Below, piece after piece: positions 6,084 to 61,337 of a DNA stretch of 64,000 nucleotides. The notes beneath the pieces are model-generated. The model had not been told where the DNA came from. It did no database searches and was given only the letters and a program-made list of their open reading frames with translations. The DNA is from Candidatus Aenigmatarchaeota archaeon (GTDB taxonomy: Archaea; Aenigmatarchaeota; Aenigmatarchaeia; CG10238-14; SpSt-28): assembly GCA_018920305.1 (NCBI GenBank), contig JAHLMO010000002.1:7580-71579 (forward strand). The letters run 5' to 3'. Every line of letters starts with the position of its first letter. Position 1 is the first letter of the stretch. The translations under genes were made by a program, and so were the position numbers.

Positions 6084-6160
6084 GACAAAAACATGAAAAT
6101 GTAACTTCCTTTATCTTTAAATTTTAATTTTTGTTTTAAAAATAACTTAAAGAAGTAATA

Positions 6161-6742: not shown

Positions 6743-6775
6743 TAATTTAAAAAATTAAAAAATAGATTTTTCAAA

Positions 6776-7117: not shown

Positions 7118-7124
7118 TTTGAAG

Positions 7125-7718: not shown

Positions 7719-7795
7719 AATAATATATATTTCTTCAGAAGAATAAAACTTAATTTTTCTTTATAGATATTTAATTTTAACAATAAACATTACCA

Positions 7796-7817
7796 AAATT
7801 TAACCATGGTTAAATTT
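7796..7817. repeat. 22-bp perfect palindrome aaatttaaccatggttaaattt; a partial direct copy (tatggtttaatttt) lies ~30 nt downstream
   Basis: Read directly from the sequence; lies in the intergenic region upstream of 7125..7718(-). Confidence 0.6.
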
Positions 7818-7928
7818 CGGCATGACTAAAATTTAAGTATGGTTTAATTTTAGTAATGTTTACTTCAAGTATTTGTTCTTTATTCAAACAGAAGATTTCA
7901 ATAGCTTAAGAAGTAATGATATTAGCGA

Positions 7929-9182: not shown

Positions 9183-9255
9183 AAATAATAGAGTTATTTA
9201 TGGAATAAATATAAACTATAGAAAAGTATTTAAACCAGAAAAGTTAAATATTTAG

Positions 9256-10506: not shown

Positions 10507-10520
10507 ATTTATCTTATTCA

Positions 10521-12353
10521 TTAAGTAAATGCTTCAATTTTCTCCTTCTTAACTATAGCTTTTAGAATTTCTTTTCCAAATTCACTTTCTTTATTTAGTT
10601 TTATTGTGTTATCTTTTCCAATATTTGCTGAAAATAAAAACTTTCCATTAATGTAAAATTTTACAGATTTACCTACTAAGTTTTCGAAAAATTTAAATAC
10701 TATAGAATTTCCAGTTTCAGAAATTAGGAAATCAACTTTTTTTCCTAAAGATGGTGTTTTTGGTTCTACATCTATAGAAATTCCCAAAATCTCTTCTAAT
10801 TTTTTTATTGTTTTTCCTTCTTTTCCAATAATTTTTGGAAGAACTTCGTTATCAACTTTTATTAATACTTTATTTTCGTTTAATATTTCTATTTCAGCAT
10901 TCTTATCAAATCTATCAATAAATTCTTTAATTCTTTGCTTAGCTAATTCATATATAGCATTTTTTCTTTTTTCTTCTTCTATTGGAACAACAACATTTTC
11001 TTCTCCAAAGGTATAAATTTCATATTCTAACTTACCACTTTCAAAATCTCTAACTTCAACTACAGGTCTAGCTAAGTCTTCTTCAGTCATACCTGTAGGA
11101 ACTTTAACTTTAATTTCTAAGGTTAAAATTTTTTTAATTTCTCCGTCTTTTATAAAAATTATTGTATCAACTATATGTGGTAACATTCCTAATTCATATC
11201 TACTTAAAAATCTTTGAATAGCATCTATTGCATCGCTTGCATGTACTACTCCTATCATTCCTATACCAGCTAATCTTAAATCAGCAAATATTTCAAAATC
11301 TTTCGTTTTTCTTATTTCATCAAAAGCAACATAATCTGGTCTAACTAATAATAAAATATCTGCAGTTTTTTCAAACGAATTTTCTAGAGGACCATATTGA
11401 GTAACTTCCTTAGGAACTTGTAAATCTCTAGGACTTTCCAAGGTTTTTACTATTTTTCCTTTTTTTAGGTAAAATTCTATTAAAGAGCTACAAAAAGTAG
11501 ATTTACCAGATCCAGGGGGACCACAAATTATTATTCCTTCTGCTTTTTTTTCTAATCTTTCTATTAATTTTTTACTGGGCTTATAATCTTCCAAACTTAG
11601 CTTAACTATTGGTTTTATAACAGTAATTTCATATGAACTAGAAAATGGTGGTTTAGCAATAGCAATTCTATAATTTTTCATTTGAATTACAATAGCGTTT
11701 TCCCTTATTATTTCAAAATAGGAGTTTTCATCTCTTCTCGCAAATTCTATAATTTCTTTTATCATTTCTTCAATTTCATCTCTACTTATTACTTCCTCTC
11801 TTAACTTAACTAAACTCCAATTTCCAGGTTTACCTTTTTTTGCATATGGACTAACGTTTTCTTTTAAATGGATGCTTAAAGTTTCTTCATCGAAAAAACT
11901 TTCAAATTTTAACTTTTCTTTAAGAAAAATTTCAGGAGCGATATAAATTACTTTTGTACCTTCTGCCTCAGCTACTAGTGCTTGAATATAGTCAGAAGTT
12001 AATAAATATGCATTTTCTCTTTTTGCAATATCTCTAATTAATGCATCAATTCTACCTCCTCTAGCTAATTTAATATCTTCTAGGCTAGGTCTTTCTCCTA
12101 CAAACTTAATCAATATATTTTTTGTTTCTGCTTTTTCTCTAATTTCTTTTATTTCATTTAATCCAATAATCCCTTCTTTTCTTCCTTTCGATGCTTGATT
12201 TTGTAATTCATCTAAAGAAGGAATTGGAATAATTATTTCTTTTAAATTTTTAAATTTATCAAAATTTTGACTTACAAATTTATCAATAATTATAGAAGTA
12301 TCTAAGCAAATTTTTTCGGCAATTTCAATTTTTTTATTTATTTCTTCCTCCAT
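10521..12353 (-). CDS. PIN-domain / PilT-like ATPase with C-terminal KH domain (PINA-type ATPase, COG1855)
   Basis: Walker A CGPPGSGKSTF; C-terminal KH GKEGKTIKKLEEILG; N-terminal PIN-like segment. Confidence 0.7.
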   Translation of the reverse strand: MEEEINKKIEIAEKICLDTSIIIDKFVSQNFDKFKNLKEIIIPIPSLDELQNQASKGRKEGIIGLNEIKEIREKAETKNILIKFVGERPSLEDIKLARGGRIDALIRDIAKRENAYLLTSDYIQALVAEAEGTKVIYIAPEIFLKEKLKFESFFDEETLSIHLKENVSPYAKKGKPGNWSLVKLREEVISRDEIEEMIKEIIEFARRDENSYFEIIRENAIVIQMKNYRIAIAKPPFSSSYEITVIKPIVKLSLEDYKPSKKLIERLEKKAEGIIICGPPGSGKSTFCSSLIEFYLKKGKIVKTLESPRDLQVPKEVTQYGPLENSFEKTADILLLVRPDYVAFDEIRKTKDFEIFADLRLAGIGMIGVVHASDAIDAIQRFLSRYELGMLPHIVDTIIFIKDGEIKKILTLEIKVKVPTGMTEEDLARPVVEVRDFESGKLEYEIYTFGEENVVVPIEEEKRKNAIYELAKQRIKEFIDRFDKNAEIEILNENKVLIKVDNEVLPKIIGKEGKTIKKLEEILGISIDVEPKTPSLGKKVDFLISETGNSIVFKFFENLVGKSVKFYINGKFLFSANIGKDNTIKLNKESEFGKEILKAIVKKEKIEAFT

Positions 12354-12384
12354 AAGAAATTGATAATAAGAATTTAAATAACCC

Positions 12385-13749
12385 CTATTTCAAAGAATGT
12401 AAGAATTCTATTAATAACCTTACTCCAAAGCCAGTAGCATATTTATTTATCCAATTTTCTTTTCTTGGATATATTGCTGGACCAGCTATATCTAAGTGAA
12501 TCCATTTTTTATTTTTTACAAATTCTCTAATAAATAATGCACCTACAATACTTCCAGCTTCTCTCGATGTAGGAGATCTAACATTTGCTAAATCTGCTCT
12601 TTCACTTTTTATTAATTCTCTATAAAATGATGGCAAAGGCATTCTCCAAACATATTCTCTTTTTTTCTTTCCAATTTCAAATAATTTTTTAGAAAGTTGA
12701 TTATCGTTTGAATACATAGCAGCGATTTTATAACCTAAAGCAACTATTTGTGCACCAGTTAGTGTTGCAACATCAATTATTAATTCTGGATCAAATTTTT
12801 TAATTCCATATTGAATAGCATCTGCTAAAACAATTCTTCCTTCTGCATCAGTATGCACTATTTCAACATATTTATCTCCAATTTTTATTATATCGCTTTG
12901 TTTTATTGCATTTTCACTAATTATATTTTCTGCTAGAGGAATTAAACCAACAACATTTAATGGTAAATTTAGCTTAGAAATAGCATAAAATATTCCAACT
13001 ATTGCAGCTGCACCACTTTTATCTGCAAACATTTCATACATATATTCAGCTGGTTTAACATTTATTCCACCAGCATCAAAACACAAACCTTTACCTACTA
13101 ACATTATTGGTTTTTTGTTTTTATCTTCTGCTTGAAAATACTTTAAGATTAATAATCTTGGTTTATTTTTTGAAGAATTACCAATTGCCAATATTCCTTC
13201 TAATTTTTCTCTTTCTAAATCTTTCTCATTTAAAACATCTATATAAACATTTGGAACTTCTTCAAATATTTCATATACTTTTTCTACAAATGCTTGTGGA
13301 TAAAGCTTATTAGACGGTTCATTACCTAAATCTCTTGCAATATAAACTGCTTGAGAAATTATTTTAGATTTAGTTAAGCTTGTTTTATCTATTCCAAAAA
13401 TTTTTATATAGATCTTTTTTTCTTTCTTTTTACTTTTATATTTATCGAATTCGTAGGCACTTAGATACAAACTTTCGATAAAATTTTCTTTTTTTAAATT
13501 TTCATTTAAGTTTTCTATATTTATACAAACTTTTTCAAGATTTAAATTATTAATTAATTCATAGATTTTGCTAGCTAATATCATTTCATTCTTTAAAAAA
13601 CTAACATAAATAATTTGTTTTCCTTTCTCCTCTTCTACAATTTTGAATCTAAACTCCTTTGAAAAATCTTTTCCAAATCTTTCATCCTTTATAATTTCAA
13701 CTAGAGGATATTCTTTCTCTATTGCAATCTCTAATCTTAAATTAACCAT
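12385..13749 (-). CDS. pepA: Leucyl aminopeptidase (M17 family)
   Basis: M17 signature VHTDAEGRIVLAD; NVKPAEYMYEMFADKSGAA. Confidence 0.8.
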   Translation of the reverse strand: MVNLRLEIAIEKEYPLVEIIKDERFGKDFSKEFRFKIVEEEKGKQIIYVSFLKNEMILASKIYELINNLNLEKVCINIENLNENLKKENFIESLYLSAYEFDKYKSKKKEKKIYIKIFGIDKTSLTKSKIISQAVYIARDLGNEPSNKLYPQAFVEKVYEIFEEVPNVYIDVLNEKDLEREKLEGILAIGNSSKNKPRLLILKYFQAEDKNKKPIMLVGKGLCFDAGGINVKPAEYMYEMFADKSGAAAIVGIFYAISKLNLPLNVVGLIPLAENIISENAIKQSDIIKIGDKYVEIVHTDAEGRIVLADAIQYGIKKFDPELIIDVATLTGAQIVALGYKIAAMYSNDNQLSKKLFEIGKKKREYVWRMPLPSFYRELIKSERADLANVRSPTSREAGSIVGALFIREFVKNKKWIHLDIAGPAIYPRKENWINKYATGFGVRLLIEFLHSLK

Positions 13750-13770
13750 AAATAAGTAGTAAAAAAATAT

Positions 13771-14070
13771 TTATATTTTTTCTATTTTTATATCTTTTGT
13801 TGTAAGAAGTAAGTAGTTGTCATCTATTAAAATTAAATTTAATTTATAAAGATTTCCAAACCTCTTAAATTCTTTAATTACGTTTTGATAATCAGAAATA
13901 TTTTTTATTCCTTTCAAATTTACCAAAACAACTTTTTTTTCTAAAACTTTTTTTATCACTCTTTCAGTATCTCTTATATCTATTACTTTTTCTATTTTTA
14001 TTTTACTTTCGGCTTTTTCTTCTTTCTCTGGAAGTTCAATAATTTCTTCTCTTTTTTCTCTCATAATCAA
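13771..14070 (-). CDS. Possible SepF-like (DUF552) cell-division protein
   Basis: Pattern VLVNL..(Q)..I.EF...G.LYKL..I.DNYLLLT resembles the SepF core; 99 aa; overlaps the upstream membrane-protein gene by 4 nt. Confidence 0.35.
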   Translation of the reverse strand: MIMREKREEIIELPEKEEKAESKIKIEKVIDIRDTERVIKKVLEKKVVLVNLKGIKNISDYQNVIKEFKRFGNLYKLNLILIDDNYLLLTTKDIKIEKI

Positions 14071-14720
14071 ATAGATAGAAATGTAGATTTTATATTATTT
14101 ACATAACCTTCTATCTTTATTTCGTCATCTTTGAGAACGAAATTTATTTTTATTATTTTATCTAAAACTAAACAATCATTATATATTTTTTGTTCAATTT
14201 TTTTGCCTCCAAAAACAACAGAAAGAGAAGAGTTCGTAACACAAACATCAACAGAATTAGAAGTTATTAAAACGTTTAAGTTTTTTAGGTTTTCTAGTTT
14301 AATCTTTACATTAAATTTTTCTTTGCTAGAAAATTTTAAATCATCTAAATCTAGATAGTTTGTTTTAGCAGAAATATAAATATTGTCTGAATAATATCTT
14401 AATATACAATTTTTTTCGCATTTTAAGAGAATCTTAGAAATATTTTTAGAAATTTTTGAAAGCGATAATTTATCTATTTCGATTTCTCCTAATATTCCGC
14501 TAGTGCTTAAATCGAATTTACCATTTTTTATTTCGAGTTGAGAATCTCTACTAGATTCTATCTTAAAATAAATTATTTTCTCTTCCTTTCGTTGAAGGTA
14601 TGAGAAAAATCCAGATAACATGTTCGTGGAATATTGTTGAAGAGGAGTTTTTGTGAATAGAAGATAAAGTAAAAAACTTATACCTAATACAATTAGAAAT
14701 TCTCTCATTAAACCTTTCAT
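14067..14720 (-). CDS. Hypothetical membrane-anchored/secreted protein (N-terminal TM helix)
   Basis: Hydrophobic N-terminus LIVLGISFLLYLLF; ORF. Confidence 0.3.
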   Translation of the reverse strand: MKGLMREFLIVLGISFLLYLLFTKTPLQQYSTNMLSGFFSYLQRKEEKIIYFKIESSRDSQLEIKNGKFDLSTSGILGEIEIDKLSLSKISKNISKILLKCEKNCILRYYSDNIYISAKTNYLDLDDLKFSSKEKFNVKIKLENLKNLNVLITSNSVDVCVTNSSLSVVFGGKKIEQKIYNDCLVLDKIIKINFVLKDDEIKIEGYVNNIKSTFLSI

Positions 14721-14756
14721 AAAGTATTTATAAGTTATAAATCTATAAAAATATGT

Positions 14757-15920
14757 ATGATAGGCAATCTCTTCGACATTTATTGGATCTTTTTTATTTT
14801 ATTCTTTTTTCTTTTTCCAATTATTTATCCTAGAGTTGTCTTAGCACAAGCATTATATTTTATAAATTCGATGATAGAAAAAGTTTCTGATTCTATAGAA
14901 AGATCTAAAAGAAAATTCATTAGGATCATTAATCCAAAAGTATCTTCAGATAAGATATTTGAGAAATTAGATTTCATAACTATTGAACCTACTAGTTTAG
15001 ATCCATTCGGAATAGTAAATAAATTAGAATTTATTTTAAATCAAAGTAGTGAAAAAATAGAAAGTTATATAAGAAAATTTTCAAATGAAAAGGATGAAGA
15101 AAAGTTAAAAAATTATAAGCTACTTTTTGAAATATTAATAGTGAAAAATATTATTAAAAAGATTTTAGAACATTACAGAGAAATAATAAAAAAGTATAGA
15201 AATTTACAGATTGCTCTTTTTATTCAATTTCAATTACCAATTATTGATAGAATTTTTAAATCTTATGAAAATGGATTCGAAACTGTTTTAAATAATTTAC
15301 CAATAGGAGATGGAATAGGTCCGTTGGTTATCGCTAACCTAATAAGTAAAGAAGATAAAATAAAAGAGATTGAAGAATGCATAGTTGTAAAGAAAAAATT
15401 ATTTGGTAAAGAAGTTATTTTAATAAGAGCTAAGGGTCCAGGTGCTAGATTAGGTAGACTTCATAAAGCTTTAGAAAATGTTTTAAAGAAAGAAAAAAAT
15501 ATCGATAAAATAATAACTATCGATGCTGCTTTAAAATTGGAAGGAGAAGAAACCGGAAGTATTGCTGAAGGTATTGGAGTAGCAATAGGTGGAGTTGGGG
15601 TAGAAAAGTTTAACATAGAAACTATAGCAACGAGAAAAAAAATTAGAATGGAGGCAATTGCAATAAAAATGAGTTCTGAAGAAGCAATAAAGATTATGAA
15701 TCCAAAGATATATGAAAGTGTAGATAAGGTAATTGAAAGATTAAAAGAATTATTAGAAGATTCGAAAAAAGCTATAATTATTGGTGTTGGAAATTCTGTT
15801 GGAGTTCCTAATACAAAAGAAGAATTAGAAAATTTGAAAGAAAAAGTTAAAGATTTTTGGGAAAAATATGGAAAAGAAATAGAAAAGAGGAGTTGGTTAG
15901 ATAAATTATTTGGAATTTAA
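14757..15920 (+). CDS. Hypothetical membrane-anchored protein (DUF1512-like?)
   Basis: N-terminal TM segment, 387 aa, archaeal-only-looking architecture. Confidence 0.3.
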   Translation: MIGNLFDIYWIFFILFFFLFPIIYPRVVLAQALYFINSMIEKVSDSIERSKRKFIRIINPKVSSDKIFEKLDFITIEPTSLDPFGIVNKLEFILNQSSEKIESYIRKFSNEKDEEKLKNYKLLFEILIVKNIIKKILEHYREIIKKYRNLQIALFIQFQLPIIDRIFKSYENGFETVLNNLPIGDGIGPLVIANLISKEDKIKEIEECIVVKKKLFGKEVILIRAKGPGARLGRLHKALENVLKKEKNIDKIITIDAALKLEGEETGSIAEGIGVAIGGVGVEKFNIETIATRKKIRMEAIAIKMSSEEAIKIMNPKIYESVDKVIERLKELLEDSKKAIIIGVGNSVGVPNTKEELENLKEKVKDFWEKYGKEIEKRSWLDKLFGI

Positions 15921-16093
15921 ACATCGCTAGCTCTTAAGGTTGATCTTCCGTTTGCTTTTGCTCTTTCAATAGCTCTTTTTATTAGAGCTTCAACTTCTTT
16001 ATCTAAAGCTTCGAAAAACTCGTCGCTTATTCTCATATCTTTTACAACTTCTCTTACTGCGCTTCTTACAACAAGAGCTCTTTTCTCTGCCAT
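15917..16093 (-). CDS. Small (58 aa) histone-fold-like DNA-binding protein; not in the ORF track
   Basis: MAEKRALVVRSAVREVVKDMRISDEFFEALDKEVEALIKRAIERAKANGRSTLRASDV resembles the alpha2-L2-alpha3 portion of archaeal histones (..ARHAGRKTIKAEDI). Locally GC-richer codons. Confidence 0.35.
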   Translation of the reverse strand: MAEKRALVVRSAVREVVKDMRISDEFFEALDKEVEALIKRAIERAKANGRSTLRASDV

Positions 16094-16175
16094 GAAAAAA
16101 TTATAAGGCTAAAAAATATATATTAAAACTAACTAATTTATTTAGGAAAATGTAAAGTAAGATAAGGCGTAAAAA

Positions 16176-16183
16176 TTATAAAT
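16176..16183 (+). promoter_or_regulatory. TATA box (ttataaat) with A-rich BRE, ~22-27 nt upstream of the rpl10e ATG. Suggests a leaderless transcript.
   Basis: Match to the archaeal TATA consensus; spacing. Confidence 0.4.
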
Positions 16184-16202
16184 ATTATTTGAAGTTATAT
16201 TT

Positions 16203-16718
16203 ATGGCATTAAGACCTGGGAGATGTTTTAGAAGGATAGAAAGGCCATATACTAGAATTTCTTATAGAGTCAAAAGTAAAAATTATATTGCAGGGGCACC
16301 TCCAGCAAAAGTTAGGCAATATGAAATGGGAAATAAGAATTTAACAGACTATATAGAATTAAAATTGATTGCCAAAGAGGATGTTCAAGTTAGAGATAAT
16401 GCCTTAGAAGCAGCTAGAGTTATATGTAATAAGTTTTTAGAAAGAAAAGTAGGAAATTCGAATTATTATTTAAAAATTATAAAATATCCCCATCATGTAT
16501 TAAGGGAACATCCAATAGCTATGGGTGCAGGTGCCGATAGATATAGTCAAGGAATGAGATTAGCATTTGGTAGACCTATAGGTAGGGCAGTTCAATTGTT
16601 TAAGGGAGAGGCGATAATTTTATTGAGAATTAAAAAAGAATTTTTAAATTTAGGTAAGAAAGCATTAGAAATTGCTGCATCTAAACTTCCTAAAGGCTAT
16701 AGAATAGAAGTTTCATGA
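16203..16718 (+). CDS. rpl10e: 50S ribosomal protein L10e (uL16)
   Basis: MALRPGRCFRRIERPYTR...APPAKVRQYEMGN. Confidence 0.9.
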   Translation: MALRPGRCFRRIERPYTRISYRVKSKNYIAGAPPAKVRQYEMGNKNLTDYIELKLIAKEDVQVRDNALEAARVICNKFLERKVGNSNYYLKIIKYPHHVLREHPIAMGAGADRYSQGMRLAFGRPIGRAVQLFKGEAIILLRIKKEFLNLGKKALEIAASKLPKGYRIEVS

Positions 16719-17200
16719 AAATTGCGATATTCAGCGATACTCACGACAATACTGAGAATATTTTAAAATTAATTTCAAAATTAAACAAAATTAAAGTTGA
16801 TTATGCATTTCATTGTGGAGACATTTGTTCGCCTTTTTCAATAAAATTGTTTGAAAAACTTAATGTAAAAAATTTATTTGTAGTATTTGGAAATAATGAT
16901 GGAGATAAAGTAAATTTGATTAAAAATATGCCAAAAAATACTAAGTTTTTTCAAAATTATGGGGAAGTAACTCTTTCTAATAAAAAAATTTTATTTACTC
17001 ATTATGATTTTATTGCAAAAGCCTTTGGATTTTTAAATAAATATGATTATATATTTTTTGGACATACGCATAAAAAGGAAGTTTTAAAAATTAGAAAAAC
17101 TACATTAATCAATCCTGGAGAAATTTTAGGATATTTTTCAAAACCAAGTTTTTGTATATTAGATTTGAAAAACGATAAGTATAAATTTTATAATCTTTAA
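16715..17200 (+). CDS. Metallophosphoesterase (MJ0936/YfcE family)
   Basis: DTHDN, GDICSP, GNND, GHTH motifs. Confidence 0.75.
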   Translation: MKIAIFSDTHDNTENILKLISKLNKIKVDYAFHCGDICSPFSIKLFEKLNVKNLFVVFGNNDGDKVNLIKNMPKNTKFFQNYGEVTLSNKKILFTHYDFIAKAFGFLNKYDYIFFGHTHKKEVLKIRKTTLINPGEILGYFSKPSFCILDLKNDKYKFYNL

Positions 17201-17820
17201 ATATTAGATTTAAATTTGAACGTTGTATCAAAATATCTACTGCCGAATTTTTTATCATAAAAATAATTTAAAAGAAAAATACATTGAGATGTAAAGTATA
17301 AAGTTTTTCCAAGGGAAATAATTTCATTGGAGAAATTTTTACAAATTTCTAATTGTTTTTTATCAATTCCAACAAAATCTCCTAAAACAAATAAAGAATT
17401 TTCGTCTATTTCAACATCTTCAATATTTTTACCATCTAAATCTAAAAGAAAAATCTTAAAATTTCTTTTTTTGTATTCATTTAAAATTTCCTCTAATCCT
17501 TTTCTTTCAACATAAACACCCTTTAAAGCTTCTATAGGTTTTTCTTTTTTCTTATAAAATTTCCAAAGCGAAATTTTAATTAAACTACCTATATCCTTTT
17601 TGCTCCATGGTGTTTCTAAATTAGAAACAATTTTTATTCTTATTGGCGGTTTTGGTGGACCTAATAGAAGAAGATTGAATTCTACATCACTTCTTAATCC
17701 ATTTGATATAAAAAATGCATGAATTATAGAATGAATTGCTATATCTAATCTACCTGCCTTATAAAAGTCTTTTATCTTATATGTAGTGTGACCATGTGAA
17801 ATTAGTAAAAATGCTCGCAT
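17197..17820 (-). CDS. SPOUT methyltransferase, TrmY-like (tRNA pseudouridine54 N1-methyltransferase)?
   Basis: GRLDIAIHSIIHAFF...LLLLGPPKPPIRIKI resembles TrmY/DUF358 (GRLD..., GPP.PP). Confidence 0.45.
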   Translation of the reverse strand: MRAFLLISHGHTTYKIKDFYKAGRLDIAIHSIIHAFFISNGLRSDVEFNLLLLGPPKPPIRIKIVSNLETPWSKKDIGSLIKISLWKFYKKKEKPIEALKGVYVERKGLEEILNEYKKRNFKIFLLDLDGKNIEDVEIDENSLFVLGDFVGIDKKQLEICKNFSNEIISLGKTLYFTSQCIFLLNYFYDKKFGSRYFDTTFKFKSNI

Positions 17821-17868
17821 ATTTTTGTTTTCTCTTTAAAAATAAATTTTTTAAATTTTTAACATTAT

Positions 17869-18027
17869 ATGGCATTACTCAGAGAAATTCCAACTTTTGA
17901 CAAATGTCCAAAATGTGGAAAAGGCGCAAAAATAAAGTATGAACTTATATCTCAAAACGAAAAAACAAGTGTAGTAGTTAAGATTTACGAGTGTTCTTTT
18001 TGTGGTTATAAAGGTCCAAGGATCTAA
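17869..18027 (+). CDS. Small zinc-ribbon protein (52 aa; CPKCG...CSFCG). Overlaps the 3' end of the MFS ORF.
   Basis: CxxC..CxxC; not in the ORF track (<60 aa). Confidence 0.25.
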   Translation: MALLREIPTFDKCPKCGKGAKIKYELISQNEKTSVVVKIYECSFCGYKGPRI

Positions 18028-19255
18028 GTTGAATGATAAATTCTTTAATGAGAGTCGAAAAAAAATCTAGAGATAGAAAAACTGTTTTATATATGCTATC
18101 TAATGAAATTCGTTTATCTTCAAGAAGTTTAGAAAAAATGAAAGATGAGAAAAATCTAAATATAAAAGAAATATAAAAAACGTATTCCAATCCTAATTGT
18201 GCAATAAAACCACCAAAAAGATTACCCAATAATAATCCTAAACCTATAAAAATGTTTAGAAAACCTATTTCGTTAGCAACGTTAAATTTCTTCGAAACAT
18301 AGGTTAAATGCAATATAGAAAAAAGCTGCCAAGAAATTCCCGCGATAAAACTATATAGAATTATTATTGGAAAGCTTTTAGTAGTAACCCAAATAAGAGG
18401 AATTAGAGAAATTAGAAATGTAGAAATTTGAAATAGAGTTGTTATATTAAAACGTTTTTCTAACTTTTTAATAGAGCTTGAAAAAATTAAAAATGAAATC
18501 ATTTCAATACATATAATAATAGACCATTCTACCTCAGAAAGTCCTAGAATATTTTTTAAGAAAACCGAAAAAAATGGACCTGCTATACCTATAGAAAAAT
18601 AAAATAAAAACAGCGATAAAGAATAGTTTCTCAATTTTTCATTCTTTATATTTGATTTTATTTTGTCTTTAACGAGATTAAAATAATTTCTTGGAAATAT
18701 TGGAAGAGATGTTTCATCTTTTTTTCTAATTTCTATTTTTTGAAGTATATAGATGGATAAAATAGAAAATACAAGTGGGATATAAAAAATAAATGATGGA
18801 TAATTAAATTCTTTTATTAATAAGCTAGATGTTATTGTTGCGAGTAGAGTTATAGAAGTATAAATTATAGCTAAATTAGAAATCTTATCAAATGTTTTTT
18901 CCCTAAAAACATTAGATATTATCCATGTATAGCACACAGATATTATCGAACTAGAAATGGCTCTCAATAACATCGATATAAAAAAAAGAAATTCAGTTTT
19001 CGAATAATAAGCAAGGACAAATGATAATCCCCAAATTAATAAAGAAATAGAAAGAGCTTTTTTTATTGTTTTTGGATTAATCAGCGCTAAGGAAATAAAA
19101 AAAGCTAGTACGTAAGAAATGCTTAGAATAGCATTAAAAAATCCAATAAAAAAATAAGAGAAACCCAAACTTAGAGCGTATAAAGTTATAAAAGGCACAA
19201 TAAATTGAGATGCTGTAGATAATAATGCCTCTAATATATAAACTCTTCTTTCCAT
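17978..19255 (-). CDS. MFS-type transporter
   Basis: ~12 predicted TM helices; 425 aa. Confidence 0.55.
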   Translation of the reverse strand: MERRVYILEALLSTASQFIVPFITLYALSLGFSYFFIGFFNAILSISYVLAFFISLALINPKTIKKALSISLLIWGLSFVLAYYSKTEFLFFISMLLRAISSSIISVCYTWIISNVFREKTFDKISNLAIIYTSITLLATITSSLLIKEFNYPSFIFYIPLVFSILSIYILQKIEIRKKDETSLPIFPRNYFNLVKDKIKSNIKNEKLRNYSLSLFLFYFSIGIAGPFFSVFLKNILGLSEVEWSIIICIEMISFLIFSSSIKKLEKRFNITTLFQISTFLISLIPLIWVTTKSFPIIILYSFIAGISWQLFSILHLTYVSKKFNVANEIGFLNIFIGLGLLLGNLFGGFIAQLGLEYVFYISFIFRFFSSFIFSKLLEDKRISLDSIYKTVFLSLDFFSTLIKEFIIQLRSLDLYNHKKNTRKS

Positions 19256-19275
19256 ATTAAAATAATTCTATTTTT

Positions 19276-20631
19276 ATGGATTATGAAAAAATTTTTAGAG
19301 CTTATGATATAAGAGGAATTTATCCAAATGAAATTAACGAGAATTTTGCTTATGAATTAGGAAAAGCATTAGCAACGTTTTTCTCTGGAAAGAAAAGAAG
19401 AGTTGTGATAGGTAATGATGTGAGATTAAGTAGTGAAAGTCTAAAGAATTCTCTTATAAATGGATTAATAGAAAATGGATATAATGTATTTGATTTAGGA
19501 ATAGTTCCAACTCCAATAGTTGCATTTGCTACTAAATTATTAAAAGCAAAATTTGGAGTAACGGTTTCTGCATCTCACAACCCAAAGGAATGGAATGGTT
19601 TTATTATTAATGATTCGAATTGTTTAACTGTAGGTTTAAATTTTGGATTAGAAAAAATTAAAGAAATAATGCAAAATAAAAATTTTATAAATTCAAAAAG
19701 AAAAGGAAAAGTAGAAAAATTTAATATAGAGGGAGAGTATATAAACTTTTTAAAAAGTAAATTCAATTTTGAAAGTAACTTAAAGATAATAATAGATGCA
19801 GGTAATGGATCAGCTAGTGAATTGTTACCAAAAATATTAAAAATTTATAATAAAGGAAATAATATTGAATTATTTTGTAGATTTGATGGAAACTTTCCCA
19901 ATAGAGATCCTGAACCAAAAAAAGAAAATTTATCAAAGTTGATAGAAAAAGTTTTAATTGAAAAAGCCGATGTTGGATTTGCTTATGATGGTGATGCAGA
20001 TAGAGTTGTTATAATAGATGATAGGGGAGATGTTTTATTATCTCATCAAATTCTTTCTCTGTTATTACAATCGTACGGAGATAAAATTAAGAATAAAAAG
20101 GTTATTATAGATGTTTTAAGTTCTATAGCTGCTATTGAAGAAATAAAAAAATATAAAGCAAAACCTTTAATTACGAAAGTTGGTAGAAGTTACATTCAAA
20201 ATGAAATGTTTAAAAACAAGGCTTTTTTAGGTGCAGAAATTTCTTATCATTTTTACTTTAAGGAAGTCTTTTATCTAGATGATAGCATTTTTTTAACTTT
20301 AAAAATATTAGAATTTTTAACGAAAACTAATAAAAAAATTTCAGAATTAATAAGAGATGTTCCAACTTATTTCTACGAATCTAAAAGAATTGAAATTAAA
20401 GAGGAAATGAAATTTAAGTTTATTGAAATACTAAAAGACGAATTTAAAGAATATAGTATTGAAGAGTTAGACGGAATAAAAGTTTGGCTAGATAACGAAA
20501 GTTGGATTGCAATTAGAGCATCAAACACAGAGCCAAAAATTTCTATTACTTACGAATCAAAAAAAGAAAAAAGATTTGAAGAATTAAAACAAATATCAGA
20601 AAAATTAATAGAAAAAATTAAAAAATTATAG
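19276..20631 (+). CDS. Phosphoglucomutase/phosphomannomutase
   Basis: Active-site SASHNP; metal-binding DGDADR. Confidence 0.8.
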   Translation: MDYEKIFRAYDIRGIYPNEINENFAYELGKALATFFSGKKRRVVIGNDVRLSSESLKNSLINGLIENGYNVFDLGIVPTPIVAFATKLLKAKFGVTVSASHNPKEWNGFIINDSNCLTVGLNFGLEKIKEIMQNKNFINSKRKGKVEKFNIEGEYINFLKSKFNFESNLKIIIDAGNGSASELLPKILKIYNKGNNIELFCRFDGNFPNRDPEPKKENLSKLIEKVLIEKADVGFAYDGDADRVVIIDDRGDVLLSHQILSLLLQSYGDKIKNKKVIIDVLSSIAAIEEIKKYKAKPLITKVGRSYIQNEMFKNKAFLGAEISYHFYFKEVFYLDDSIFLTLKILEFLTKTNKKISELIRDVPTYFYESKRIEIKEEMKFKFIEILKDEFKEYSIEELDGIKVWLDNESWIAIRASNTEPKISITYESKKEKRFEELKQISEKLIEKIKKL

Positions 20632-25716: not shown

Positions 25717-25824
25717 TGGGCCGGGCGGGATTTGAACCCGCGACCTACGGGTTTCTTCATTATTCAGAGCTTTTAGTGTATTAAACTAAAAGCCCGCCGC
25801 TCTACCATGCTGAGCTACCGGCCC
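25717..25824 (-). tRNA. tRNA-Lys (anticodon UUU) with a ~34-nt intron at the canonical 37/38 position (approx. 25753..25786)
   Basis: GGGCCGGTAGCTCAGCATGGTAGAGCGGCGGG-CTTTTA-[intron]-A-CCCGTAGGTCGCGGGTTCAAATCCCGCCCGGCCCA. Exons resemble archaeal tRNA-Lys. Confidence 0.75.
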
Positions 25825-30159: not shown

Positions 30160-30259
<100 letters not shown>

Positions 30260-46712: not shown

Positions 46713-47618
46713 ATGAATAATGAAATTGAAAAATATAGAAAAAAAGTTTTTAAAACTATTGAAAAATATAAACTTATAGAAAATAAAGATAGAATATTTG
46801 TTGCTATAAGTGGAGGAAAAGATAGCTCAGCTGCTTTATCTTTAATAAAAGAATATATTGAAGAAAAGAATTTAAATGCTAAAGTTTTTGCTTATCATAT
46901 TAATTTAGGCTTTGGATATTCAGATAGATTGGAAGAAGAAGTAGAAAAAATATGTGATTCTTTAGGTGTAGAACTTTACGTAACTAATGTAAAAAAAGAA
47001 TTTAATTTAAATATTTTGGAAATTTCAAAAATACTAAAAAGACCAATTTGTTCTATTTGCGGATTAATAAAAAGATACTTAATGAATAAGATTCCTAGAG
47101 AATTAGGAGCTACAAAAATAGCTACAGGACATCATATGTATGACATGCTAATAAATTATTATAAGAATTTAATACATGGAAATTTTGATTGGAATCTAAA
47201 AATTTTACCAAAGTTAAAAAGTGAACATCCTAAACAGCTAACAAAAATTAGACCATTAATATTTGCCTATCCACATGAAAACAAGATGTATTGTGAATAC
47301 AAAAATATACCGATAACGAAAATTAGCTGTCCATACTCTCCAAATTTTTGTTGTTATTTAAGTAGAAGAGAAGATTATAAAATCTTTCAAATTTTAGAGT
47401 TTTCAGATAAAAATTTTAATAATTTTAATTTAGAACTTATAAGAGGAATTACAAGATTCAATAAAAGAATCGAGAAAACTATAGAAGCTAAAAAAGAGAA
47501 TTATATGGAGTGTGAAATTTGTGGAGAGCCAACAAATCAAAAAATTTGTGGATTTTGTAAATTAAAATTGATCTATCAAAAACAAAATATGGATAACAAA
47601 ATATCTAATCTCTATTAA
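46713..47618 (+). CDS. PP-loop ATP pyrophosphatase, tRNA thiolation family (NcsA/TtcA-like) with C-terminal Zn finger
   Basis: PP-loop SGGKDS; C-terminal CEICG..CGFC. Confidence 0.6.
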   Translation: MNNEIEKYRKKVFKTIEKYKLIENKDRIFVAISGGKDSSAALSLIKEYIEEKNLNAKVFAYHINLGFGYSDRLEEEVEKICDSLGVELYVTNVKKEFNLNILEISKILKRPICSICGLIKRYLMNKIPRELGATKIATGHHMYDMLINYYKNLIHGNFDWNLKILPKLKSEHPKQLTKIRPLIFAYPHENKMYCEYKNIPITKISCPYSPNFCCYLSRREDYKIFQILEFSDKNFNNFNLELIRGITRFNKRIEKTIEAKKENYMECEICGEPTNQKICGFCKLKLIYQKQNMDNKISNLY

Positions 47619-57619: not shown

Positions 57620-57624
57620 AAATT

Positions 57625-58341
57625 CTAAACAACTCTTATAATTTTATAATTATATTTCCAGCAACCACTCTCATCATGATCACCACAATTGAGAGTTTCA
57701 GTAATATCAGTATTTCCCCAGTTACGAGAACCTAAACTAAGGCTTACAGAAGGTCTATTTTTATCTTCGTGTATAGCTCCATTTTTACAATATTTGTTTT
57801 GAGAAAAAAGATTTGAATATTCCTTATATCTAACTCTATCATCTTCAACATAATATTCTATTAACCTATCTCTGTTACATATTCCAGTACAATAATCTTC
57901 GTATCTATCTTCTCTACAAGCTCCACCACTACAATATCTATCTATAGCTGTTCCCTTTACATATGGATTATCTCCATCACTATCTGTAGACTCTCCACAA
58001 TATGTTGTAATATAATTTGCTGAACACCAACAAGTTGCACCATCGCTTTTGCATGATCTCTCTATATAACATCTATATTTATCCGCTCTTTGACCACAAC
58101 CACAAGTATATTCATCATTACATCGATAAAATATCGTTTCACACTCTAAACATTTTTTTTGCTCTGAATCATATTTTTTACACTGTCTTACATAATATCC
58201 ACCAGCAGTACAATAACAACCCGAACAATCATCTGATGAAGAGGAAGAAAACGAGTAAAGAAATGATATAGATAAAAAAATAGCACTAAAAAAGAAAAAT
58301 AATATCAATATTCTCTTATTCTCAAAAAGGACACCCTTCAT
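57625..58341 (-). CDS. Secreted/anchored cysteine-rich protein (238 aa; ~30 Cys)
   Basis: N-terminal signal/TM, then a Cys-dense, Lys-poor domain; overlaps the upstream large Cys-rich gene by 4 nt. Confidence 0.5.
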   Translation of the reverse strand: MKGVLFENKRILILFFFFSAIFLSISFLYSFSSSSSDDCSGCYCTAGGYYVRQCKKYDSEQKKCLECETIFYRCNDEYTCGCGQRADKYRCYIERSCKSDGATCWCSANYITTYCGESTDSDGDNPYVKGTAIDRYCSGGACREDRYEDYCTGICNRDRLIEYYVEDDRVRYKEYSNLFSQNKYCKNGAIHEDKNRPSVSLSLGSRNWGNTDITETLNCGDHDESGCWKYNYKIIRVV

Positions 58342-61298
58342 ATTAATTTAAATAATTTTAAACTTTTTATTAAGTTTTGAACTACCAGATTATGTATGAC
58401 TTCAAATATCGAACTTTTTTTACTTATTACTATTCCATTCATAAAATAAAATTCGTGATTAAACCAAATTTCAACTCTTACACCTTTATCTCTTGGATCA
58501 TACATTTTACAAATTATTCTATTTACTCCACTAAAATATCTTGGATTTTCTACAGAACAACTATTTATTGTTTCTCTTTCAGTATTTTGCGTACATGGGA
58601 AAGAATTTCCGCACTTACATTTTTGTCCGCTTTCTAAAATACAATTTCCGAATAATATATCATTTATAGTACAAGCATTTTTTCCATCTATAGTAGGATT
58701 AAGATAACATTCCATATTTAATTCTCTTTGTTCTCTTGCATACTCTGCTTCCCATATTACACTAAATCTTTTCTCAGTAGAAGGTAAAAACTGGAAACCA
58801 TCCCTTATATTTTTGGAAACTAAAAATGGTAAGTCAACTAAAATACCTGTATCGTTTTTTGAACAAACCGCTAACCTTCTTAAATCATTTGATCTTATAT
58901 TTTCCCATGCAATTACTATTCTATTACCATAATCCTTTATATACTGCGGATTTATTTTTGTGTTTGCTTCTAGATCTACAAAATCTTTAAAGTTATATAT
59001 CTTTACATTTCTTGGATTATTAGCTGGTCCAACCCATAAACAATCCGTAAATTCATCAGTTTTTCCAATGATATCTCTTATTTGTGTACATTTATTTCTA
59101 TATCCGAAACAATCTATTTCTTTATGATAATTTCCACCCAAACTATTTGTCTTACTTTTTACTTCGCTACTGGAATCCCAATAAGTTTTAAGAAAAACTA
59201 TCTTATCTGTTCCTCTTTGGTTTTGTTGATCTCCTCTTGCACCCAAAAATATATAAACTTGATAATTTGAATTAGAAGCAGAATTACCAGCTTGATCAGC
59301 TATATATGCGTATAACCTTCCCCATCCAATATCTAATCTTCCGAAGCTTGCTGTATGAGTTGCTGGTATCGGATATAATGCACCACCAGGACAGGAGGAA
59401 ACCGGAAAATTAGTCGATTTTGTTGATTCTGGAGATTTATCAAATCTTAGCGAGGAGAATCTTACACCGCTTATTTCTTGTCCATTATACTCATCTCTAC
59501 TTTTTGAAGTAAAGGTTATACTTTCCTTATCTATAACAACTTTATCTGGAGTAAGAGGAATTCTTCTTCCATCTTTATCTATGTAATAATTTGGAAACGG
59601 ATCATAAGTATAATCACCACTTGATATCAATTCAGGTCTATGTTGAATATCAACAAAGTATGGATTTCTCTTATCTATACAATAGTATCCGCTAGATATG
59701 ACACCACTCATCTTATCTGTATTATCACAAACAAAGATATCTTCAATTCTATATATACAAACTTCTCCAGGACTACACCTTAAATGAATATTTATTGATT
59801 CTGACGGACATCTAGAAGAAAATGTACCTAGCGCAATAGAACAATCAAGACCTTCTCCACAATTAACTGTTAATGTACTTTCTAGTTTGCTAGTTCCAAA
59901 AATAGCACTAAATGAATAACTTCCAGATCGTGTTGGAACGTTATAACTTCCACTACAACTTCCAACTAAGTTTGATCCCATAGATACAGGTATTCTACAT
60001 AATTCTGAACCATCTGGTCTTACAATTATTATATTCTTATTTTGGCAATTTCCAGAAGCAGAGTATCTTACCATCGCGTTTATATTTATTGTCTTTCCAC
60101 AATCAGTAGTACTTGAAGGCGAAATAGAAAAAGACTCTAAGCAAAGATAACAACCATCAGACCAACAACATACACCTCGACAAATAACTGTCAAGTTTGC
60201 TGATATTTTATTCTCTTCATAAACGGCATTAAAGGTATAGTTTCCAGACTGAGTTGGAACGTTATAACTTCCACTACAACTTCCGGCTTGATTCTCGCCT
60301 ATAGAGATTGGTATTTTACATAATTCTGAACCATCTGGTCTTAAAACTGTTATATTCTGATCTTGACAATCTCCAGATGCCGAATATTTTACTTCGGCTT
60401 TTATATCTATTGTATTTCCGCATCTATCAGTACTACTTGGATTTAAAGATAATGATTTCAAATCTACTTTACAACATTTAGCCTCTAATTCTGTAGTTAC
60501 TTCTAGGTTTTGGAGAACAGCCTTAAAAGTATACTCTCCAGCTTGATCAGGAACTTTATATTTTATATTACGTTTTCCTACTAAATTGTTTCCTACATTT
60601 GTTATTGGAATTTCACATACTTTATTAGAAAAATGATCCAAAACAGTTATGTTTTGATTGAGATAAGCTTCTGTAGCAGTATACTCTACGCTTATCTCTA
60701 TATCTATTTCTTCACCACATTTATCTGTGCTACTTGGATTAAGAGATATTGATTTTAACCCTGGACACTGTACTTTTATATTAAAATATTTTACTTGTCT
60801 ACTTTCTGGATATCTTAGTTGTCCATAAATGGCTCTAAAAGTATATTCTCCAGGGTAAGATGGAATATAATAGTCTTCAACACAACCTATTGTATGTTCT
60901 CTACCAGGTTCAACATCCTGAATATGCAGATTACAGAATACAGAACCATCTGGTCTAAACACTGTTATTATTTCTCCACGACAAACTTCAGAATTAGCTG
61001 TAAAATTAACTACTGCTCTTAAAGTATCGCTTCCTCCGCACTGGGAGAAAAACCTAGGAACTAGATAAAAATGATTAATATGTATAACACAACAAGGCTC
61101 TCTAGACCATCCAGATTCACAACAATAATAAGTTACGCCACCAAAAGTAGCGGAATCTCCTATTTTATAATCACATCCTTCTTTACAACAACTTTTCCAT
61201 ATGTCGCTTTTATCGCTAAAAGAAATATAGAAAAAATGTAGAGTTAAAAAAGAAATAAACACTAAAAAAATTGTAATTCTATGAATAATACTTACCAT
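58338..61298 (-). CDS. Large secreted cysteine-rich surface protein (986 aa) with 4 tandem ~95-aa Ig/CARDB-like repeats and a ~500-aa C-terminal domain of unknown function
   Basis: Signal/TM N-terminus. Repeats S.NPSSTD.CG..I.I...V.Y.ASG.C...NI.V.RPDGSELC.IP.S.G.N..GSCSGSYNVPT.SG.Y.F.A appear 3 times, plus a diverged first copy. Confidence 0.5.
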   Translation of the reverse strand: MVSIIHRITIFLVFISFLTLHFFYISFSDKSDIWKSCCKEGCDYKIGDSATFGGVTYYCCESGWSREPCCVIHINHFYLVPRFFSQCGGSDTLRAVVNFTANSEVCRGEIITVFRPDGSVFCNLHIQDVEPGREHTIGCVEDYYIPSYPGEYTFRAIYGQLRYPESRQVKYFNIKVQCPGLKSISLNPSSTDKCGEEIDIEISVEYTATEAYLNQNITVLDHFSNKVCEIPITNVGNNLVGKRNIKYKVPDQAGEYTFKAVLQNLEVTTELEAKCCKVDLKSLSLNPSSTDRCGNTIDIKAEVKYSASGDCQDQNITVLRPDGSELCKIPISIGENQAGSCSGSYNVPTQSGNYTFNAVYEENKISANLTVICRGVCCWSDGCYLCLESFSISPSSTTDCGKTININAMVRYSASGNCQNKNIIIVRPDGSELCRIPVSMGSNLVGSCSGSYNVPTRSGSYSFSAIFGTSKLESTLTVNCGEGLDCSIALGTFSSRCPSESINIHLRCSPGEVCIYRIEDIFVCDNTDKMSGVISSGYYCIDKRNPYFVDIQHRPELISSGDYTYDPFPNYYIDKDGRRIPLTPDKVVIDKESITFTSKSRDEYNGQEISGVRFSSLRFDKSPESTKSTNFPVSSCPGGALYPIPATHTASFGRLDIGWGRLYAYIADQAGNSASNSNYQVYIFLGARGDQQNQRGTDKIVFLKTYWDSSSEVKSKTNSLGGNYHKEIDCFGYRNKCTQIRDIIGKTDEFTDCLWVGPANNPRNVKIYNFKDFVDLEANTKINPQYIKDYGNRIVIAWENIRSNDLRRLAVCSKNDTGILVDLPFLVSKNIRDGFQFLPSTEKRFSVIWEAEYAREQRELNMECYLNPTIDGKNACTINDILFGNCILESGQKCKCGNSFPCTQNTERETINSCSVENPRYFSGVNRIICKMYDPRDKGVRVEIWFNHEFYFMNGIVISKKSSIFEVIHNLVVQNLIKSLKLFKLI

Positions 61299-61337
61299 AA
61301 ATAGTATTTAAAAACTATTTTTATTTATAGGCTACTA

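Follow-up and report, generated by a model that had tools for sequence, protein, structure and literature searches.

Several described systems bear on how surface proteins of archaea might be built. The OmpL47-type (NF047446) and CHB_HEX_C_1 (PF13290) domains are Ig-like domains of bacterial surface proteins. In chaperone-usher pili and in the 'threads' of Sulfolobus, polymers are built from identical or similar subunits, linked by the donation of one strand. The S-layer of Sulfolobales has two components, SlaA and SlaB, the latter anchored by a C-terminal transmembrane (TM) helix and a coiled coil. DPANN symbionts form cytoplasmic connections with their hosts, and to our knowledge very few surface proteins of DPANN archaea in general have been tied to a function. 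We know of no host-contact machinery defined for Aenigmatarchaeota, and a literature search on this subject returned nothing relevant. In Nanoarchaeota, hypothetical 'external' proteins with an N-terminal anchor show an elevated density of non-synonymous SNPs and have been interpreted as host-contact proteins (Jarett et al. 2018, PMC6142677).

Here we describe a pair of genes in a 64,000-nt stretch of DNA (hereafter the window) from a reduced-genome DPANN archaeon, whose products appear to be extracellular proteins, rich in disulfides and composed of Ig-like domains (Table 1). We favour, with a probability of about 0.55, a reading in which they are the two subunits of an extracellular, disulfide-stabilized surface complex, its Ig array exposed and variable, with contact as the most likely role. 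As the initial annotation had it, the genes lie on the minus strand and overlap, here by 4 nt (ATGA, joining the small-gene start to the large-gene stop), and are bordered by core genes, aRF1 at one end of the pair and MCM and rpoL at the opposite end. The flanking spacers are 5 and 39 nt long. The 39-nt spacer, between aRF1 and the large gene, contains TATAAATA, a possible promoter of the large gene's own; AT-rich motifs like it are common at 24% GC, which makes it a weak candidate. Both proteins are cysteine-dense (5.0% in the large and 8.8% in the small, versus 0–3.7% in about 60 other window ORFs) and lysine-poor (about 6% in both versus about 12%). Each has a single N-terminal hydrophobic segment that ends in SFS, and a ..SFSG/D motif is conserved in the large-subunit family (alignment A1); these segments would route both proteins through Sec. 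A Kyte–Doolittle scan found no further TM-grade segment in either protein (windows above 1.6 occur in the large one only at aa 1–28), and no C-terminal TM or sorting signal was found in either.

Table 1 Features of the gene pair, with positions in the window
Feature	Position	Strand	Remarks
Possible own promoter, TATAAATA	61322..61329	(-)	about 27 nt upstream of the large-gene ATG
Large subunit gene	58338..61298	(-)	986-aa ORF; map from alignment A1
N-terminal hydrophobic segment, aa 1–27	61218..61298	(-)	putative Sec-type signal peptide or signal anchor; ends in SFS
N-terminal Cys module, aa 28–73	61080..61217	(-)	WKSCC..GCDY..TYYCC.SGW..PC
Ig-like repeat R1, aa 74–176	60771..61079	(-)	part evolving fastest
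Ig-like repeat R2, aa 177–273	60480..60770	(-)	47% identity with R3
Ig-like repeat R3, aa 274–372	60183..60479	(-)	59% identity with R4
Cys-rich linker and Ig-like repeat R4, aa 373–485	59844..60182	(-)	
Split OmpL47-type domain (putative), second half, core aa 486–546	59661..59843	(-)	F..RCP.ES..I.L.C...VCIY...DN..K....YCIDK..P
Ig/FN3-type beta-sandwich (confident), core aa 547–685	59244..59660	(-)	D.EY.G.EISG ... DQAGNSASNSNY
Most conserved stretch, core aa 686–830	58809..59243	(-)	FLGARGDQQNQ.GTDKIVFLKTYWDSS ... GKTDEFTDCLWVGP ... CSKNDTGILVDLP
C-terminal Cys-rich beta module, core aa 831–960	58419..58808	(-)	pLDDT 80–90; GFQ.LPST..RFSVIW..YAREQRE..ECYLNP...ENPRYF.G.NRIICK.YDPRD
C-terminal amphipathic helix, aa 965–986	58341..58406	(-)	not TM-grade
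Small subunit gene	57625..58341	(-)	238-aa ORF
N-terminal hydrophobic segment, small aa 1–33	58243..58341	(-)	ends in SFS
Variable Cys-rich region, small aa 34–105	58027..58242	(-)	alignment A4: Cys residues conserved, little else
Disulfide-rich beta module (conserved), small aa 106–189	57775..58026	(-)	YCGESTDSDGDNPY.KG...YC..G.C...Y.DYC.GIC.R..L.EYY...LFS...YCKNG
Split OmpL47-type domain (putative), first half, small aa 190–238	57628..57774	(-)	P.VSLS...W.NTDIT.TL.C.D.DESGCWKYNY

Searches of known families assigned neither protein, as previously noted. In a scan of 1.84 billion proteins there were 15 matches, and the pair is confined to a narrow clade of Aenigmatarchaeota whose members are, with few exceptions, hot-spring MAGs. 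The closest genomes carry the label Candidatus Aenigmatarchaeota, and a contig of one relative measures 549 kb, in line with the reduced genome suspected by the initial annotation. The large subunit has an orthologue, P0001, of 92% identity, and the small-subunit family (P0006–P0015) spans 41–92% identity. In all 11 examined loci with a small-subunit gene, a core gene directly adjoins it; the order is core then small in 10 of them, nearly all with the 4-nt overlap, and reversed in L013. The pair is mostly single-copy, and some genomes have two paralogues or variants that lack the small subunit.

The large subunit begins, after its hydrophobic segment, with a Cys module in which W34, C37, C38, C42, Y44, C59 and C60 are invariant (alignment A1) and which the remote homologues P0031, P0032 and P0038 also possess. 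Four tandem repeats of about 95–105 aa follow (aa 74–485; tblastn E-values of 1e-11 to 1e-38), close to the length first proposed. R1 is 25–31% identical to R2–R4, R3 and R4 have four conserved cysteines each, and R3 is 55–58% identical to the Ig modules of P0003, P0004 and P0005. Repeat number varies across relatives (0, 1, at least 2 and 4). These repeats had been termed Ig/CARDB-like, of which the first half stands: Pfam HMM searches gave no CARDB match at E ≤ 1, and on R3 aa 292–365 the Filamin/ABP280 repeat (PF00630) scored 26.5 bits (E = 1.2e-5), just below its cutoff of 26.9, and MG2 (PF01835) 24.1 bits, below its cutoff of 32.8. The near-cutoff PF00630 match would support a generic Ig-like (E-set) fold only.

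The core, in the C-terminal ~500 aa, has no Pfam, NCBIfam, PHROGs, PADLOC or PDB sequence match, in agreement with the lack of a recognizable family reported earlier. Fold searches return strings of Ig/FN3-like domains only, with no enzyme fold; those against BFVD gave generic FN3 and lectin domain strings at TM ≤ 0.24. The best Foldseek matches are long beta-sandwich strings, the macroglobulin (MG) arrays of complement C3, alpha-2-macroglobulin and TEP1, at TM-scores of about 0.13 and r.m.s.d. above 40 Å, so that only the domain type is shared; unlike MG arrays, the gene pair has no thioester domain, bait region or sequence homology to them. The module at aa 831–960 recurs in P0032 and P0037, two remote homologues, as a unit of its own. 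The terminal helix is modelled at residues 480–500 of the core and 629–645 of P0021, with a hydrophobic moment of 0.33–0.67 across the family.

In sister lineages, the C-terminal module of the small protein is fused straight onto the N-terminus of the core, as in P0021 and P0027, which are Rosetta-stone fusions of small module and core. The conserved module of the small subunit (aa 106–189) is homologous to aa 359–492 of P0027 (49% identity, E = 1e-36) and to aa 37–150 of P0021 (39%, E = 8e-28), in both cases directly N-terminal to the core, and the small proteins end at the exact points where the fused proteins run on into it. Upstream of the RNase P p30 gene, L007 and L008 carry the two-gene pair, and L009 has a fused gene in that slot, with no separate small gene behind it. 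By hhalign, residues 190–236 of the small family align with positions 7–52 of the junction domain of P0030 (E = 4.5e-5) and residues 15–61 of the core family with positions 68–112 (E = 1.6e-5), the probabilities for the two window halves being moderate (69% and 79%). This junction domain is contiguous in P0030 and matches NF047446 with E = 8e-5 and 23 bits (cutoff 40); the remote homologue P0032 does so with E = 1.3e-9 and 38.3 bits (cutoff 40) and scores above the cutoff for PF13290 (22.8 versus 22 bits). Whereas these contiguous versions match the models, the half-domains of the window alone reach neither threshold, and neither they nor an artificial chimera of them directly match any library model. 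What the halves have in common with NF047446 and PF13290 is the pattern W..[DN].[IV].[IV].[LI].C.D..SGC..Y.Y ... VC.Y...D..GN......IDK..P; unlike those domains, the window version is divided over two separately translated proteins and carries extra cysteines. Because the fused homologues have the domain contiguous, we interpret the two segments as a single OmpL47-type beta-sandwich divided between both window proteins. The AF2 model of fused P0021 is confident across the junction (pLDDT 81–96), with values of 84–94 for the counterpart of small aa 106–189 and 81–91 for the strands equivalent to core aa 486–546; the same segment is modelled with lower pLDDT (64–85) in the core alone.

The C-terminus of the small subunit would thus provide the first three strands of the domain and the start of the conserved core the remaining ones. 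With the strands divided in this way, the fused homologues lead us to infer that the two chains assemble by completing one shared domain. Such an arrangement would resemble donor-strand complementation, in which an incomplete Ig-like fold is completed by another chain to give a very stable, non-covalent extracellular link. In contrast to those systems, a single heterodimeric domain is proposed here, to which one protein would supply about three strands and the other about four, and no sign of polymerization was found for the gene pair. Cysteine counts are odd in the small subunit and in the core and even in fused P0021, a parity that is no more than suggestive; one inter-chain disulfide may reinforce the link between the subunits.

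Evolutionary rates differ sharply along the large subunit when the window is compared with one near-identical strain, L001. R1 is 71.9% identical to its counterpart with 7 gap positions, and has dN = 0.195 and dN/dS = 2.2, versus dN = 0.0045 and dN/dS = 0.10 for 11 neighbouring genes pooled (Fisher p = 6e-11). R2 has dN/dS = 0.69, and the core, at 0.20, is under purifying selection. With only about 5 synonymous changes, the excess of R1 over 1 is not significant alone (p = 0.11), and its divergence could owe something to recombination. A role at the surface or in interactions is consistent with the rapid non-synonymous change of the Ig array. Like the Nanoarchaeota proteins of PMC6142677, the large subunit belongs to a hot-spring DPANN archaeon, has one N-terminal hydrophobic helix and shows a locally elevated non-synonymous rate; unlike them, it comes from another phylum and is a different protein, with the elevated rate in one Ig repeat and a defined partner subunit.

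In the two-subunit surface complex that we favour, the core would be kept at the cell by its partner, by its own amphipathic helix or by both, and the N-terminal Cys module with its variable number of Ig-like repeats would form an exposed, fast-diversifying array. Most likely, the complex would serve to contact surfaces or other cells, a host for example. No recognized adhesin, lectin or receptor-binding domain was found in the gene pair, and an adhesion or host-contact function, as proposed by the initial annotation, is inferred. With its predicted shared domain and fast-evolving Ig array, the pair is a good candidate for cell-surface contact machinery of the source archaeon.

The same features could describe a structural envelope system of S-layer type, consisting of a large lattice subunit and a small partner or anchor without a specific host-contact role, which we consider unlikely, though the best placed of the alternatives. 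As with SlaA/SlaB, an operon in a thermophilic archaeon encodes a large secreted protein rich in beta-sandwiches and a small secreted partner, predicted here to form a two-subunit surface assembly; the pair appears vertically inherited, is mostly single-copy and is embedded among core genes; and the core outpaces housekeeping genes, as S-layer proteins do (57–77% identity among relatives versus 83–96% for MCM and aRF1). However, there is no sequence or global fold likeness to any known or solved S-layer protein, including SlaA and SlaB, and no TM helix or coiled coil of the SlaB type. The proteins show no enrichment of N-glycosylation sequons (6 in the large one, 0 in the small), and the lack of a C-terminal TM or sorting signal and the occurrence of paralogues and small-subunit-free variants also speak against a lattice. 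A repeat that alone diverges so strongly resembles a tip facing a ligand or partner more than a lattice element.

A bolder version of the contact role, in which the pair is a host-attachment apparatus (a split-domain heterodimer with aa 686–830 as a new receptor- or membrane-engaging element and an Ig tip in an arms race with the host), strikes us as doubtful. The stretch on which it turns has dense invariant columns (alignment A3), pLDDT of only 33–57 in both the core-only and the fused P0021 models, and no family or fold match in our searches. Being the most conserved part of the core yet without a predicted fold, it could carry an activity outside the complex model. The core might then harbour a new catalytic domain and be secreted as an enzyme or a toxin, directed for instance against a host envelope, with the Ig-like domains and the small subunit as its carriers or targeting modules. 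In favour are the wealth of conserved D, K, E, C and W residues in this near-invariant, unassigned stretch and the fact that such conservation within a fairly fast-evolving protein is typical of an active or specific binding site. We hold this to be improbable, since profiles from Pfam, NCBIfam and PDB gave no match to a catalytic family, even with a limit of E ≤ 1, and the secondary structure of the core is predicted to be almost entirely beta strand. Among specific candidates, no transglutaminase/papain-like core, that is, a catalytic-core sequence match with a Cys-His-Asp triad fold, was found.

Lower still in probability is a fusogen-like role, in which the complex would bring about membrane contact with a host cell, or fusion to it, its core and terminal helix engaging the target membrane. 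An all-beta ectodomain rich in disulfides, its conserved amphipathic helix at the terminus and the cytoplasmic connections of DPANN symbionts would suit it, but HAP2 and Fsx1 are absent among the top Foldseek matches and align no better than isolated FN3 domains (r.m.s.d. 5–10 Å). The hallmarks of class II fusogens such as HAP2 and archaeal Fusexin1 (a three-domain ectodomain with fusion loops and a C-terminal TM anchor) were likewise not identified.

The initial annotation had regarded the pair as a compositionally atypical cassette inserted between rpoL and aRF1. Its lower AT content holds against the window average (GC of 0.28–0.33 versus about 0.24), but the adjacent MCM gene also reaches 0.32. 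The GC excess is confined to codon position 2 (z = 3.5 and 4.2) and stems from the amino-acid content of both proteins; neither GC3 (z = 0.3 and 0.2) nor synonymous codon usage (z = −0.6 and −0.9) departs from the remainder of the window. With amino-acid content taken out, the composition of the pair cannot be told apart from that of the genome. Raised GC in an AT-rich genome need not signal foreign DNA, and here it is entirely a matter of amino-acid content. The aRF1/rpoL slot holds orthologues of both genes in the related genomes L001, L003 and L005, and core-family genes adjoin aRF1 in three species. Orthologues in the slot and ordinary composition had been set beforehand as the observations that would count against an insertion; both were found, the orthologues being without annotated function. 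Recent acquisition as a foreign cassette is therefore scarcely credible, and a horizontally acquired island is refuted as far as sequence evidence reaches: total GC above average, an amino-acid composition unlike any other protein in the window and a different locus in more distant relatives are outweighed by ordinary codon usage, the occupied slot, the confinement of the family to Aenigmatarchaeota, the absence of any integrase, tRNA or boundary repeat at the edges of the pair, the short spacers and the lack of a PHROGs or PADLOC match at E ≤ 0.1. The comparison with relatives indicates instead that the pair is a conserved module, native to its clade and vertically inherited within it.

The locus offers a concrete, conserved two-gene candidate with a predicted heterodimer interface, a fast-evolving exposed repeat and a near-invariant module at aa 686–830. 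Its natural split and fused variants provide an evolutionary series for the division of an extracellular Ig-like domain between two polypeptides. Should the host-attachment reading prove true, the pair would give a first molecular handle on how Aenigmatarchaeota bind to their partners.

The best-supported reading of the two genes is that they encode a native, two-subunit, disulfide-stabilised cell-surface complex. Both are the minus-strand ORFs described by the initial annotation, and they overlap by 4 nt (ATGA). aRF1 lies on the same strand, 39 nt upstream of the large gene, and rpoL is convergent with the small gene, only 5 nt separating these ORFs and thus leaving no space for a terminator hairpin. 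Gene packing at both spacers is extremely tight; the longer one holds TATAAATA, ~27 nt upstream of the ATG. As had been claimed, each protein starts with a single strongly hydrophobic segment (no second TM-grade segment is present in either protein outside it), and both are dense in Cys and poor in Lys: Cys makes up 5.0% of the large protein and 8.8% of the small one, compared with 0–3.7% in ~60 other ORFs of the window, and Lys stands at ~6% in the pair versus ~12% elsewhere in the window. N-glycosylation sequons are not enriched, and no paralogue of the pair turned up when the rest of the window was searched. Only one other window ORF has elevated Cys (3.7%), and its product may be a metal or Fe–S binding protein. 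Two of the five tRNA genes in the window, at 108 and 99 nt, are long enough that they probably contain introns; the remaining three are of normal length.

Coordinates of the gene pair, its parts and related loci, with dN/dS between the window and strain L001
Feature	Position	Strand	dN/dS	Remarks
Large gene	58338-61298	-		ORF, 986 aa
R1	aa 74-176		2.2	dN = 0.195; 38.8 non-synonymous vs 5.2 synonymous differences; 7-residue indel
R2	aa 177-273		0.69	
R3	aa 274-372		0.29	
R4	aa 373-485		0.75	
Core			0.20	Purifying selection
Small gene	57625-58341	-	0.23	ORF, 238 aa; dS threefold above background
Spacer, aRF1/large gene	61299-61337			
Spacer, rpoL/small gene	57620-57624			
ORF with elevated Cys	46713-47618	+		
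Long tRNA gene	25717-25824	-		108 nt
Long tRNA gene	30160-30258	+		99 nt
Order-swapped pair	L013:5832-8407			
aRF1–MCM slot	L016:7087-11437			Contig JAVYPJ010000002, 288 kb
P0003/P0004	L004:10001-12883			GCA_044343115; DUF2341-domain proteins with R3-like Ig module
P0005	L002:8397-11534			GCA_044343115; 1045 aa, multi-repeat, R3-like Ig module

The two genes are tightly linked. A gene for the core, as the C-terminal ~500 aa of the large protein are called here, directly adjoins the small gene in all 11 examined loci that carry the latter, in the order core then small in 10 of them, nearly all with a 4-nt overlap; the eleventh (L013) has the reversed order, small then large. The L013 large gene is broken by an N run (a scaffold gap), and in its insert repeated CNDGKDNDGD..DCNDPDCSNDNAC-type Cys/Asp-rich motifs replace the Ig repeats of the window. 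In the fused homologues P0021 and P0027, the core is directly preceded, within one chain, by the 130 conserved residues with which the small protein ends (matches to the small protein: 49% identity and E = 1e-36 for P0027; 39% and E = 8e-28 for P0021). At locus L009, a fused gene stands in place of the two-gene pair that loci L007 and L008 have upstream of RNase P p30, and no separate small gene follows it. These fusions are a classic Rosetta-stone case. A rival reading of the pair is a two-component S-layer.

No family could be assigned to either protein, as the initial annotation had noted: Pfam, NCBIfam, PHROGs and PADLOC scans gave no above-threshold match, PDB sequence and profile searches gave no match, and scanning each family member separately revealed no recurrent weak match. 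The core family comprises ~16 clusters at 90% identity, whose members are 40–80% identical to the window protein, lack any Pfam domain and, where a source is named, are all 'hypothetical' proteins of Candidatus Aenigmatarchaeota. Among 1.84 billion representative proteins, an exhaustive profile search returned only 15 matches at E ≤ 1e-3 (nine below 1e-30); scanning 185,579 species-representative genomes yielded eight loci in seven Aenigmatarchaeota MAGs, whose isolate names match Tengchong geothermal-spring data sets (PMC11094006, PMC11770067). Alignment A1 defines the architecture of the large protein: a signal/TM segment, a conserved ~45-aa Cys module (WKSCC..GCDY..TYYCC), a variable insert and the core. 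The small-protein family forms 10 clusters with 41–92% identity. A shortened homologue of the small subunit, P0013 (134 aa), has a signal peptide almost identical to that of the window protein, lacks most of the Cys-rich middle and could be a deletion allele; its MAG is labelled Nanopusillaceae archaeon, which suggests possible mis-binning. Literature searches for surface proteins rich in Cys in DPANN archaea or Aenigmatarchaeota yielded no relevant report.

The junction between the two chains appears to fall within a domain. Alignment A5 shows the separate small proteins stopping (...ESGCWKYNYKII-RVV) at the very point where the fused ones run on into roughly the first 60 core residues. The homologue P0030 has the corresponding segment in one piece, and this matches NCBIfam NF047446 (OmpL47-type beta-barrel domain; E = 8e-5) over both halves; in the remote homologue P0032, the complete domain matches the same model with E = 1.3e-9 and also exceeds the cutoff of Pfam CHB_HEX_C_1. 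Profile comparison (hhalign) places small-family residues 190–236 on positions 7–52 of the P0030 domain (E = 4.5e-5) and core-family residues 15–61 on positions 68–112 (E = 1.6e-5). In an AF2 model of fused P0021, pLDDT averages 79 and is high across the junction (81–96 for residues 40–215), with three strands in the small-equivalent part and four or five in the core-equivalent part; modelled without its partner, the core segment has a lower pLDDT of 64–85. An artificial chimera of the small C terminus and the core N terminus had no library match, and the split-domain argument therefore rests on the fused homologues and hhalign. We infer that the window chains may assemble by completing a shared β-sandwich, the small subunit docking onto the core through domain complementation. 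All small proteins have an odd number of Cys residues (21, 21, 21, 21, 23, 23 and 15), as do all cores (19 or 21), whereas fused P0021 has an even number (26); the totals for the full large protein vary with the inserts. This parity would fit a single inter-chain disulfide but is no more than a hint. If both N-terminal segments stayed on as uncleaved anchors, the small subunit of the four-repeat variant would be unlikely to extend as far as the base of the core, so that cleavage of at least one of the two signals seems the likelier case.

The core would be the conserved functional body of the complex. Both the core-only model (pLDDT 73, pTM 0.47) and the P0021 model are nearly all β-strand with a terminal amphipathic helix, the hydrophobic moment of which is 0.33–0.67 across the family. 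A second rival, a new secreted enzyme, would be hidden in the conserved stretch: residues ~686–830 of the large protein show the densest sequence conservation, yet have the lowest confidence in both models (pLDDT 33–57), and they match nothing in any search. No enzyme fold was found in the core models, and transglutaminase was rejected, its matches being without global similarity. A third rival, a fusogen-like machine, was rejected: HAP2 and Fusexin1 matched no better than isolated FN3 domains, and a C-terminal TM segment is absent.

That the pair is a foreign cassette, inserted and compositionally atypical as initially proposed, is effectively excluded by ordinary codon usage and conserved synteny. 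Its GC content (0.28–0.33) does exceed the window mean (~0.24), but that of the adjoining MCM gene reaches 0.32. Both genes are GC outliers at codon position 2 only (z = 3.5 and 4.2); GC3 is 0.15 in each (z = 0.3 and 0.2) and synonymous codon choice, scored with a model of the other 58 window ORFs, does not stand out (z = −0.6 and −0.9). The shift thus stems from amino-acid content, Cys, Gly, Ser and Thr replacing Lys, Ile and Glu, and is not a mark of foreign DNA. Strain L001 (GCA_038735415), whose housekeeping proteins are 97–100% identical, shares with the window the arrangement MCM, rpoL, small gene, large gene, as do L003 and L005/L012 (GCA_038997165, 549-kb contig), where aRF1 is in place too; core-family genes adjoin aRF1 in three species (L012, L016 and L019). 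Composition and synteny thus both go against atypical, inserted DNA, although the orthologues have no known function. In L016, the aRF1–MCM slot contains neither rpoL nor a small-subunit gene but three consecutive genes (396, 439 and 613 aa), all encoding an N-terminal hydrophobic segment, the third of which belongs to the core family but carries another N-terminal extension. This slot looks like a hotspot of genes for surface proteins.

The insert is the variable part of the large protein. The four tandem Ig-like repeats expected there are present, with 59% identity between R3 and R4, 47% between R2 and R3, and 25–31% between R1 and the other three (tblastn, E = 1e-11 to 1e-38). Their 'CARDB-like' label did not hold, as Pfam returned no CARDB match; the only Pfam signals in either protein were sub-threshold matches of R3 to Filamin (26.5 bits; cutoff 26.9) and MG2. 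Four repeats are found in the window protein and P0001, one in P0002, at least two in P0036, and none in P0016, L007 and L008; the insert of other family members consists of unrelated Cys-rich linkers. R3 is 55–58% identical to Ig modules of P0003, P0004 and P0005 from another Aenigmatarchaeote. It thus resembles these modules more closely than it does R1 or R2 of the same protein, a sign that Ig modules may have been shuffled among surface proteins. The P0005 gene lies within 13 consecutive genes (3103 to 19982) without a recorded Pfam match.

Evolutionary rates between the window and L001 were set against eleven pooled neighbouring genes (dS = 0.046, dN = 0.0045, dN/dS = 0.10). The ratio of non-synonymous to synonymous differences in R1 departs from the housekeeping ratio (Fisher p = 6e-11); dN/dS > 1 in R1 taken alone is not significant (p = 0.11). 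Fast non-synonymous change concentrated in a single repeat, combined with variation in copy number, is what one would expect of an exposed surface facing a partner or enemy, and parallels the elevated non-synonymous SNP density in hypothetical external proteins of Nanoarchaeota (PMC6142677). The N-terminal Ig array would form a variable, exposed extension of the complex.

Multi-Ig, Cys-rich surface proteins are an already known kind. Three features are new: two families that lack annotation are restricted to a single Aenigmatarchaeota clade; they are obligately paired, with fused, split and order-swapped forms occurring naturally; and one Ig-like domain is apparently shared out between two secreted chains. 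No domain of proven adhesive function was found in the pair. In a DPANN archaeon with a genome of ~0.55 Mb or more, the most likely role of the complex is contact with other cells or surfaces.
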